NCBI GenBank assembly: GCA_951406725.2
Contig: OX597814.1
Coordinates: 119,660,001-119,724,000 of the forward strand
Direction: 5' to 3'
From: Octopus vulgaris
Taxonomy: Eukaryota
DNA length: 64,000 bases
In this document: positions 4,543-63,897 of the stretch, one piece after another
Layout: each line of letters begins with the position of its first letter
Numbering within the stretch: the stretch's first letter is position 1
Notes under the pieces: model-generated
Seen by the model: the letters and a program-made list of their open reading frames with translations, nothing else
What the model was told of the DNA's origin: nothing
Databases searched by the model: none
Made by a program: the position numbers and the translations under genes

Positions 4543-4666
4543 TCCTTACTCTGATGAAGCTCCATTGTTCAGATCTGTTTTATTACCAAATTATGATAAA
4601 TATGTTTTTAGCATATCAGTGGCAATACCACACAACATTGGAAGCAGAAACAGCTGTTAGATAGGA
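4543..4666 (+). ncRNA. Type I hammerhead ribozyme-like motif with extended stem II (Penelope pLTR-like)
   Basis: CTGATGA 4551-4557. Stem II GCTCCATTGTT pairs with AACATTGGAAGC. GAAA 4647-4650. Stem III is C-AGCT-G with a palindromic loop. Triplet GTT. Imperfect stem I TCCTTACT/AGATAGGA. Confidence 0.6.
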
Positions 4667-4959
4667 TGCAGTCTATTTGAATTGAATTAATGAGTGATAA
4701 TTAATCAAGAGGATGCGTTATAACACTCTTCCACATATAGACAAACAGCCATACCAACAATGCAATATAATGTAAGTATATATTGTTGCTTTTCAATGCT
4801 TCTCCATTTTCTGTTTCCTTTATACATACATATGTGTATGTGTGTTTGTGTGTGCGCGCGCGCAAACAGACAGTTAGGAAGCGCACGCAAGTGTGCTACT
4901 TCTTCCGGCGTGGTGAGTGCTGGCATGGACGTGAGGGAACAAATTGCCGCTTCCTGCAT

Positions 4960-7345
4960 CCGAAATTACTTAACAGGCAGACCAAAAGAAAAAGCTTCTC
5001 TCCAAAAGACAAAGGAAGACTACAAAGAAGAAGAAATCGTGCATCACCTGCCTCAAAGCTAAAGCACACCGATGAATTGAACATTATGTAATACCAGATT
5101 ACAGCATGAGAGAGTTGACCACATATGGTTCAACGGAACACACAAATATGCAGCCTATATAAAGCACTCAGAACCTATCTAATCTGAACTTCCACAAAGC
5201 AGACCTGAAATCTATTGAAAAAGAGATCACCATACACGAATGGTCTCAATGTCTCTCTACACCTGACATAGATATGACCGTATTACAAGCCATATACTAC
5301 AATTTTATTCCAGAGGGAAGAACCACTGCACATAAAAATGAGTTCCCCATGGAGAGGAAAGTACTTATGAGACAAAGATTGCAAACCGCTTGAACAGAGA
5401 ACTCAACGGTGGTGTGAAAACCCGCCTGAAAACAGCACTGTTGAACTTTGGGAAACAACTGAAGCGCTCCCATCAGAATGAAAGATCAGACAGAGAAGCC
5501 TGGGTCATAAGAAATATAAAATAGACCTTAAAGTCTTCTTTACGTACGCCAAGTAGACTGCCTCTGCGCATTGCAAGGTAGGTCACTCCTCCAAAATAGA
5601 TGGCTCTCTCATGGGGAACCCAGTGAAGATAAGGGAAACACTGAATGAACAGTACATACGTGTCTTCACCCCATCACTACGGCACATGCAAGTTAGCAAA
5701 CCTGTGGAATTTTTTACTGCTACATAGCCTGAATTGGAGGCTATAACAGTTGATTACGTCAACATCAAAGAAAAGTATGTCGTACATACTTTTCCTTTTG
5801 CTTTTCTAGGCTCTTCTTTTTTATTTATTCCTTATTCTGATGAATGTATGATATAGGTGTATGTATGATATAGATGCAAACACAGCTACGGACCCTGATG
5901 GATTCCCAGCAATCCTCCTAGTCATGCAAACGAGTCTTGCAAAACTATTACAGCTACTTTTTCAGAGCTTCCTCGCAATTGGTAATTATACACCCTATCA
6001 ATAAAGGAGGAAGTAGAGCATATGCTAAAAGTATAGCACTATGTCTCTGACCTCACACATCAGCAAAGTCATGGAACGAATAGTTCGAAAGAAATGAATT
6101 GCATTCCTTGAAGAGAATGAAAGAGAATGACTTGCTGACTGACACCCAGTATTGTTTTCGAGCAGCTAGAAGCTGCCGGACACAGCTCTAGCACCATTAC
6201 GACTTGATGCTAAGGCAGCTATTCAACAACTCAGATGTGGATATGATATACCTCGACTTTACAAACGCCTTCAACAAATTTGGCCATTGTATGTTTTGTT
6301 ACAAGCTCCGAAATCTTGGCATATTTGGAAAACATGGACAATGGCTACATGACTTTCAAAGAGATAGAAGTCAGGTGTCAATGGAGTCACTTCCAAGAAA
6401 AAAAAAAAATGAATAATGTTCCACAGGGAACGGTCCTGCGGTCCCTGTTATTCATAGTGGCTCTCTCTGATATGCCATCAGCTGCTTAAGTAGATACTCT
6501 TGCTAGCTATGCAGACGAAACAAAACTCTCTCAGACGATACAGAACCCTGAAGACGTTGTGCATCTGCAACGTGAATTAGACGAAATATACAGGAAAATA
6601 GCATGCAGGTTAAACTGGTAGAAAATTCCAAGCCGAGCGCCCTCAACACGGGAAGCTCAATGAAAAGCAAATAGGATACATTGGCCCAGGAGGGATTCCA
6701 ATCCCCGAATCAAAATCAATGCGTGACCTAGTCACCGATATCAGTAGTGATGAATCTTTTGAGCTGCAAATTACCAATAAAATCCAGACTACCTGCCGGG
6801 TGGCTCCTTCGAACTTTCAAAACAAGAGAAAAGGAAACCAAGATGGTCTTCTGGAGGTCGTTTCTTCACAGACCTCTCGATTACTGTTCCCAAAAGTGGT
6901 CACAAAACACAGTAACGACTGCACTGGAGGCGATCCAGCGATACAATGCGACATATCTATTGGGAGAGACTAAAAGAGTAAAGAATCTACTCCATGGAGC
7001 GAAGGCGGGAAGGATATGCAGTGATATACATCTGTAAAATCCTAGAAAAAACTGTTTCATACTTTGGCATCGTCACTTACTCAAATAGCAGAATGGGTGG
7101 CACTACATGATACAGGACTATATACTGCAACAGCTTGGGCGTCAAAGGCCCGCAGCTCGTCAGTATCCTCCCACAAAGCATGGCGTCGATGTAGGTTTTT
7201 TCGAAACAAAACTGTTAATAGCTTCGGATGAACCTGCTACTTGGCACGAAACACACATTAAGGCATCAGAAGAAGTTTAGTGAAAGTGTAGCAAAGTAAA
7301 AGGCGGGGCCCCAGCATAGCTGCACTCCTTAGCCTGAAACTTAGA
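4960..7345 (+). mobile_element. Decayed CR1-group LINE (ORF2 reverse transcriptase pseudogene with 3' tail)
   Basis: Frameshifted RT motifs in the expected order: A.DPDG (GPDG-like, about 5885), SLTSHISKVMERIV (about 6043), DMIYLDFTNAFNK (YLDFxKAFD), VPQGTVLRSLLF, SYADETK (YADD), LDYCSQKWS, LEAIQR, MERRRERY and VKGPQL. Many stops. The 5' boundary is approximate. Confidence 0.92.
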
Positions 7346-63442: not shown

Positions 63443-63528
63443 TATATATATATATATATATATATATATATATATATATATATATATATATATATATATA
63501 TATATATATATATATATATATATATATA
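63443..63528. repeat. (TA)n microsatellite
   Basis: Direct reading. Confidence 0.97.
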
Positions 63529-63612
63529 TTGGGGAAAGCAATTTTTAAATAAATATAAATAGAAATGATACATTTTTAAATATCTCAGAGAGATTTATGC
63601 AGTAGTGGTACA

Positions 63613-63897
63613 ATAAAGTAGTTTTATACTGTCAACTTAATATGACAGTGCCATGTAGGGAATCATACTACTGCTATTTAGGCCTAGGAAGCAGCAACGC
63701 TTCCTTCGGCCTTCACACATTTCCTGTGTCCTTATGTTTGCAAAGGGGAGATAAACACCTCTCCTTTGCAAACATAAGGACACAGGAAATGTGTGAAGGC
63801 CGACAGGAAGTGTTGCTGCTTCCTAGGGCTAAATAGCAGTAATATGATTCTATTCATGGGACTGTAATATTAATTTGACAGTATACAACTACTTTAT
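63613..63897. repeat. Near-perfect palindrome: about 138-bp arms with an 8-nt loop
   Basis: By hand, 11 substitutions and 1 indel between the arms. The loop is ATAAACAC (63751-63758). A (TA)n tract abuts the right end. Confidence 0.96.

Follow-up and report, generated by a model that had tools for sequence, protein, structure and literature searches.

A 64-kb window of the Octopus vulgaris genome (assembly GCA_951406725.2, contig OX597814.1, positions 119,660,001 to 119,724,000; window coordinates are used below) raises the question of how long palindromes, some with a hammerhead ribozyme motif in each arm, came to lie beside its microsatellites. An earlier note on this sequence had listed five such palindromes, designated here 18483, 24394, 51387, 62469, and 63613, together with three solo hammerhead motifs, and had proposed that several families of Penelope-like elements (PLEs) leave palindromic dimers in (TA)n tracts, which may form a non-autonomous element class. 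The results revealed that the five palindromes are very probably PLE-type insertion scars. Each consists of two 5'-truncated copies of one hammerhead-family repeat end that meet head to head in a TA microsatellite, and is likely the product of a single Penelope-type insertion in which both target strands likely primed; the two-strand priming step, taken by itself, is held with moderate confidence. Palindrome 18483 was traced to a protein-coding parent, and the other four likely share its route.

The window lies in a 2.8-Gb assembly and is AT-rich and crowded with microsatellites. Microsatellites and short tandem repeats were masked before the window was compared with itself by BLAST for inverted repeats. 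All five palindromes were recovered, at 18506-18700 (arm identity 98%, E 3e-90), 24394-24651 (71%, E 4e-25), 51387-51536 (81%, E 1e-31), 62440-63018 (71%, E 3e-14), and 63616-63894 (89%, E 1e-100), and their arms thus range from near-identical to strongly diverged, as the earlier note had described. A (TA)n tract lies no more than 130 nt away on at least one side of 5/5 palindromes and on both sides of 3/5, compared with 31% for the either-side control. None of the 10 pairwise comparisons among the five yielded a match better than E 0.003, which agrees with the earlier statement that they have no evident sequence in common. A 412-nt short-read contig, possibly from the same individual as the assembly, crosses the centre of 24394 with 0 differences, and sister palindromes with differing junctions are present on many contigs; where testable, the palindromes are not an assembly artefact. 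Among the 99 window reading frames of at least 72 aa that passed a complexity filter, none contained a Pfam domain and no host gene was found, although short exons escape such a scan.

The genome was then searched with the five palindromes and the three solo motifs, and the best 40 of 111 to 2719 candidates were scored for each query. All eight queries belong to dispersed repeat families (those of the five palindromes are termed A to E in order of position), and sister copies of all eight carry an intact hammerhead core at the matching place, in proportions ranging from 1/9 to 6/7 of sister loci for the seven families other than A. The proposal that several families have left PLE ends with minimal hammerheads in (TA)n was borne out. 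The longer copies of family A, the family of 18483, have up to approximately 4.3 kb upstream of the hammerhead in common and contain an open reading frame (ORF) of 842 aa in locus L066 and 828 aa in locus L063. A 125-nt window arm is identical, letter for letter, to both ORF-bearing copies tested, and the arm with its tail (195 nt) is identical to L063. The tail sequence also stands directly before the ORF in L066 (5237-5318), which is the pseudo-long-terminal-repeat (pLTR) arrangement.

The structural model of the 842-aa protein (pLDDT 82) has telomerase reverse transcriptase (RT) as its best fold match (E 1.3e-9), and the C-terminal part resembles GIY-YIG clusters (0.95). The motifs DKT, CxCX5C, CxxC, and CxH occur in this protein and are shared by 39-40 of the 40 proteins aligned; DKG occurs in 0/40, and CCHH is absent from the 842-aa protein; named relatives among the matches listed come from Argonauta only. 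On this model, family A is an endonuclease-positive (EN+) PLE with a single ORF predicted to encode a telomerase-like RT followed by GIY-YIG, and its pLTR organization with an optional tail, as read from the DNA, is that of EN+ PLEs. The terminal repeat carries a minimal type I hammerhead with a palindromic helix III and a 4-bp helix I, the cleavage of which is predicted. Neptune was considered as the parent clade and dropped, as the motifs fit Hydra.

The Hydra clade, described by Craig et al. (2021, PMC8557442), comprises C-terminal EN+ PLEs with DKT, a CxCX5C linker, no CCHH, CxxC and CxH motifs near the end, and insertion into (TA)n. Family A appears to fit this clade in all these motifs, in the order of RT and GIY-YIG, in its hammerhead, and in its (TA)n target. 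It differs in having RWA in place of RWK, the latter being present in 31/40 aligned proteins, and in its length of approximately 4.4 kb, compared with generally <3 kb in the clade (PMC8557442), because of a long (1.7-kb) non-coding 3' part. Hydra-1_Obim, listed for Octopus bimaculoides (PMC8557442 File S1), is 2507 bp long. Family A is also very young, with many copies 98-100% alike and open ORFs (L066 5377-7902, L063 4334-6817), and its 1.7-kb 3' part is unusual in its strong strand bias and simple repeats.

Palindrome 18483 itself has the following anatomy. A one-sided tail of approximately 73 nt (18411-18483, minus strand) is joined to the left arm only (18484-18606, minus), which is a Hydra-clade PLE 3' end in which the minimal hammerhead is complete (core at 18591-18597, stretch from GAAAC to cleavage triplet at 18539-18528, minus). 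The right arm (18607-18723, plus) has no tail, is 7 nt shorter at the junction, and contains a second core at 18609-18615. The two cores point outward, as had been claimed; the minus motif alone keeps its 4-bp helix I, and the junction reduces that of the plus motif to 2 bp. The hairpin has a predicted fold of -207 kcal/mol (z -38) in which the hammerhead is entirely paired. The same claim for 24394 also held only in part, because outward-facing cores are present in both arms (24480-24486, minus, and 24559-24565, plus) and neither motif is intact, the minus motif being without the cleavage-site U and the plus motif having a broken core. This palindrome belongs to an old head-to-head insertion of family B (24227-24655; no single strand is assigned to this or the following palindromes), the arms of which are 71% alike over 24394-24651; the left arm extends approximately 170 nt further, and its left end is approximate.

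The remaining three palindromes have the same layout. The family C insertion (51361-51644) comprises a left arm without a tail (51361-51466) and a right arm with a tail of approximately 85 nt. The old family D insertion (62440-63180, right end approximate) has a long left arm without a tail (62440-62840) and a short right arm (62841-63018) followed by a tail of approximately 160 nt. The family E insertion (63557-63897) has a left arm with a tail of approximately 58 nt (63557-63615) and a right arm without one. Decayed hammerheads had been reported in 62469 and 63613. The former are genuine remnants, one per arm (62570-62576, minus, and 62877-62883, plus), as the core is intact at the matching place in 6/15 sister loci; the look-alike in 63613 is normal sequence of its family, in which the true hammerhead is situated upstream of the fold-back point. 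Neither 51387 nor 63613 contains a hammerhead, because the junction of each window copy falls downstream of the place that the motif occupies in the family. The 63613 hairpin has a predicted fold of -217 kcal/mol (z -31). At 63696-63800, its inner part is near-perfectly paired and its outer part is mismatch-rich, and one letter is common to both arms and unlike the sister copies; arm-to-arm correction at the centre is possible.

A strict hammerhead descriptor identified two motifs in the window (18597 and 21589), compared with 0.045 per shuffle (200 shuffles, none with two). An Rfam scan of the window gave 132 matches at E<=1, none of them to a hammerhead family; its miRNA matches were all under the gathering score and located on microsatellites and hairpins. 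Free-energy folding of four isolated motifs yielded z scores of 0.68, 0.07, 0.57, and -1.15, and this lack of significant stability is expected for minimal motifs but lends the motifs no support. The helix II closing pair is a conserved mismatch (A-C, C-A, or A-A) in family A (18597), family E (L112-L131), and the family of the solo motif 4543 (L193-L199). In family A, the mismatch is seen in young identical copies and therefore is not decay.

The junctions were compared between copies. We examined 34 family A loci. An inverted partner accompanies 20 of them and is missing from the other 14, among which one place is counted twice. The junction pairs differed in 20/20 cases: ten overlap by 1-6 nt, five are blunt, four have 1-10 inserted bases, and one is unresolved. 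With a query that contained no tail, a tail was found on exactly one arm in 20/20 pairs. The longer arm was the tail-less one in 11 pairs and the tailed one in 6, with 3 equal, and the differences reach kilobases; the two arm lengths are uncorrelated (rho 0.17). Manual tallies revealed one tail in 31/33 family C pairs, and among 22 family E pairs 16 were clean one-tail insertions, 1 was partial, 2 had a tail on both arms, and 3 were other. Junctions and arm lengths also vary from copy to copy in these two families, and each palindrome is therefore the scar left by an individual insertion event. At sites diagnostic of subfamilies, the two arms of an insertion agree in 53/57 cases in family E, compared with 51% between copies, and in 63/70 in family C, compared with 52%, the latter after the removal of four columns misaligned at the tail boundary (71/136 with them). 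Separately, in L122 and L128 (family E), L146 (family C), and L073 and L076 (family A), an internal inverted segment stands at the 5' end where other copies have their second terminal arm, much as in the 5' inversions of LINE-1 type.

Biochemical findings for a PLE protein suggest how such a layout may arise. According to Frangieh et al. (PMC11167929), the purified protein cleaves AT-rich target DNA on both strands and extends each of them, initiates at a pair of RNA sites bracketing the tail, and is predicted to be a dimer, and hammerhead cleavage is unnecessary in vitro. We propose that the endonuclease would nick both strands of a (TA)n tract, and that one 3' end would start at the outer RNA site and yield the tailed arm while the other would start at the inner site and yield the tail-less arm, with a single RNA, or RNAs from one source, as the template for both. 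Each copy would end independently, and repair would join the two ends, often through microhomology of 1-6 nt. One start site per cut strand would therefore produce a head-to-head pair, a single tail, and free arm lengths, matching the counts. The hammerheads would ride along with the element end and, locked in the long duplex of a read-through RNA, are predicted to stay uncut; the insertion would afterwards decay neutrally, from arms 98% to arms 71% alike. In the openly accessible literature, supplements largely apart, no paper was found to state that inverted PLE copies arise by two-strand priming.

Families B, C, and E differ from family A in their units. Several of their copies run from the tail end straight into the next unit with its hammerhead, which yields closed non-coding units of approximately 350 nt (B), 450 nt (C), and 335 nt (E), and among the fetched loci they form partial tandems only. 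Intact cores were found in 8/17 loci of B (some being one place fetched twice), 4/20 of C, and 10/20 of E. The combination of an inverted arm, one tail, and a TA target was seen in the window copy only for B. By sequence, these three families appear to be retrozyme-like ORF-less units, and such short units would borrow PLE protein in trans. The proposed non-autonomy thus holds for the families of 24394, 51387, and 63613, and not for that of 18483 with its protein-coding parent. ORF-less hammerhead units derived from PLEs are known (PMC7229834; bioRxiv 10.64898/2026.07.22.740005), as are non-autonomous Chlamys such as MRC1 (PMC8557442). Families B, C, and E resemble the non-LTR retrozymes described in PMC7229834 in having closed non-coding units of approximately 340-450 nt, one type I hammerhead, and partial tandems; they differ in being dispersed pieces of 0.3-1.6 units with an inverted arm and in having minimal rather than canonical hammerheads. 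Non-LTR retrozymes proper are recognized by tandem arrays, with a complete hammerhead in each of two consecutive units, and by circular RNA.

Several observations weigh against the proposed origin. The family A connection to ORF-bearing ends (L063 and L066) has no counterpart for families B-E, for which the fetched loci yielded no protein-coding parent, the search being shallow with the best 40 candidates scored; parents may therefore still exist. PLE ORF fragments near some B-E copies are not continuous with them. For the family A parent protein itself, Pfam returned no significant RT or GIY-YIG match (RVT_1 was found in 1/40 relatives), and a sequence search of PDB returned no match. Target-site duplications are unreadable within (TA)n. 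The family C and E queries included the tail, which biases their tallies against tail-less pairs, and two family E pairs have tail sequence on both arms. In family A, 3/20 junctions are exactly symmetric on a short palindromic word, as fold-back predicts. The family C agreement depends on the column removal stated above, and the agreement at diagnostic sites in general could also be explained by subfamilies active at different times or by arm-to-arm conversion.

The symmetric junctions bear on the closest alternative, which has the same PLE origin and derives the second arm from self-priming, a cDNA, made on an antisense template, folding back at a short palindrome and copying itself. Arkhipova et al. 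(2013, PMC3846280) proposed this mechanism from palindromes at inverted junctions; the three symmetric junctions, with overlaps of 2-4 nt, and the diagnostic and some rare variants that the arms have in common fit it. A fold-back copy, however, cannot extend 5' beyond its template and a fixed length order is predicted, yet the tail-less arm is the longer one in 11 pairs and the tailed arm in 6. The one-tail rule in 20/20 pairs, together with the finding that either arm may be longer, favours both-strand priming over fold-back, and we regard self-priming as a possible but rather unlikely general explanation; it may still account for the symmetric minority of junctions.

The idea that the palindromic dimer itself is mobile, a miniature inverted-repeat transposable element (MITE)-like ribozyme fold-back class that undergoes transcription, cleavage by the outward hammerheads, and renewed insertion as a whole, draws on the many similar-sized short palindromes of each family and on the three families without an ORF. 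The similar-sized matches, however, were picked by the query, the junction pairs differ in 20/20 cases in family A and vary in C and E, and hammerheads are absent from two of the five palindromes; those in the remaining three are either damaged or predicted to be sequestered by pairing. A MITE or fold-back DNA transposon would have a fixed unit, symmetric termini, and a constant junction; here the junctions vary and the termini are asymmetric. The earlier proposal of a separate class was not sustained, because junctions and arm lengths differ between copies, and the mobile dimer, already largely refuted, is very improbable. A post-insertion origin, in which separate insertions happened to land side by side or a replication error at (TA)n duplicated a solo copy in inverted orientation, appears equally improbable. 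(TA)n tracts are unstable and draw repeated insertions, and the arms of 24394 and 62469 are merely 71% alike; nevertheless, the outer ends lie at two fixed family positions, one per arm, and young pairs have near-identical arms with no flanking DNA between them. The single PLE insertion with both strands priming thus remains the preferred explanation.

The layout is the known PLE footprint and not a new class: the inverted 5'-truncated copy, the one-sided tail, the (TA)n target, and opposite-strand hammerheads are all in print, and as a sequence feature the palindromes are ordinary PLE debris. Pen2a_Av and its relatives (Arkhipova et al. 2013, PMC3846280; Craig et al. 2021, PMC8557442, including the Fig. 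2 legend) likewise have an inverted 5'-truncated copy head to head with a direct copy, a tail at one end only, and a microsatellite target that hides the duplication. The octopus insertions differ in their tails, approximately 58-170 nt compared with 30-40, and in their short arms, which often leave just a 150-600-nt palindrome. In Schistosoma, dual opposite-strand motifs 100-700 bp apart were ascribed to truncated PLEs by Cervera and de la Pena (2014, PMC4209133). The minimal metazoan PLE hammerheads described there are, like those of the octopus, type I with a palindromic loop 3 and an extra base after A9, mostly solo, and spread genome-wide; unlike them, those of families A, E, and 4543 carry mismatched bases in the position of the usual G10.1-C11.1 pair, and helix II loops in the octopus reach 50-90 nt. 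The available portions of PMC6962438 and PMC9989829 add nothing further on such palindromes.

All three solo motifs listed earlier were found. The first (4551-4658, plus; searched stretch 4503-4680) has a long helix II and belongs to a dispersed family in which the core is kept in 6/7 sister loci. The second (21556-21589, minus) lies in a dispersed-family copy at 21407-21850, sister copies of which end in (TA)n. The third (31643-31680, minus) is in a decayed copy at 31575-31800; its family, that of 31637, is a distant relative of family B, as sister copies of the two match at E 3e-6. No parent ORF was found next to 16 loci from the families of 4543 and 31637, save one unlinked fragment. The 4503-4558 piece (56 nt, up to the core) recurs 1.3 kb downstream at 5790-5844 (93%), where the second copy sits beyond what looks like a piece of a retroelement; a further match (86%) links 5563-5780 with 1993-2210. 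A further palindromic family (L159 7445-8359, L166 8160-8538) has the core variant U3-A8, which is known from the PLE hammerheads of Schistosoma.

Other repeats were also noted in the window. A SINE-like repeat of approximately 400 nt is present in at least seven copies in both orientations (4045-4230, 15450-15836, 37591-37978, 41446-41866, 43715-45160, and 54756-55080), and its close inverted pair at 43737-44113 and 44670-45160 (84-88%) is another possible source of double-stranded RNA (dsRNA). A tRNA-like match at 22045-22117 (40.8 bits, above the Rfam gathering score), flanked by microsatellites, is probably a SINE head.

The abundance of the palindromes was estimated from 40 evenly chosen, unselected 10-kb stretches of the genome (400 kb). 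The strict descriptor identified 19 hammerheads in this sample, compared with 0.4 in shuffles. The inverted-repeat scan returned 35 rows, from which 4 overlapping duplicates and 7 widely spaced pairs were removed by eye; the remaining 24 palindromes correspond to 1 per 17 kb, compared with 1 per 13 kb in the window, and the window is therefore ordinary. Ten of 33 relaxed hammerhead matches lie inside these palindromes, compared with 0.54 expected from their span. Matches to DNA near a hammerhead elsewhere were found for 17/24, although this is sometimes maybe a neighbour and not the same element. Scaled genome-wide from this small sample, the number would be on the order of 100,000-170,000 palindromes. 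Those with arms at least 89% alike occupy 3,935 of 400,000 bases (approximately 1%).

These palindromes would form long dsRNA if transcribed, and they are a candidate source of octopus hyper-editing that is plausible in scale. Porath et al. (2017, PMC5625713) placed octopus and frog highest in hyper-editing and dsRNA potential, with a near-perfect dsRNA potential of 4.4e-3 for octopus by another measure, and the available text names the repeat source for frog only. The palindromic Harbinger of Xenopus, an ADAR substrate (PMC5625713), is likewise a self-pairing repeat that gives long dsRNA; Harbinger has a palindromic consensus, whereas the octopus palindrome is made anew with each insertion, and its editing is here only proposed. 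The openly accessible literature, within the scope given above, contained no paper that ties palindromes of the octopus to both PLEs and editing. For the question of how head-to-head insertions of PLEs arise, young family A provides a clean count fitting two-strand priming. In its furthest form, the suggestion is that PLE proteins, starting on each cut strand at two fixed RNA points, would make a large share of insertions perfect hairpins from the outset, and that such scars, on the order of 100,000 or more and covering approximately 1% of the genome as near-perfect palindromes, might be the main source of the long dsRNA for hyper-editing in the octopus; we offer this tentatively and regard it as rather unlikely. 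The PLE palindromes are roughly as abundant as this role would require, their positions can be compared with published editing maps, and this link to editing is the part worth testing.

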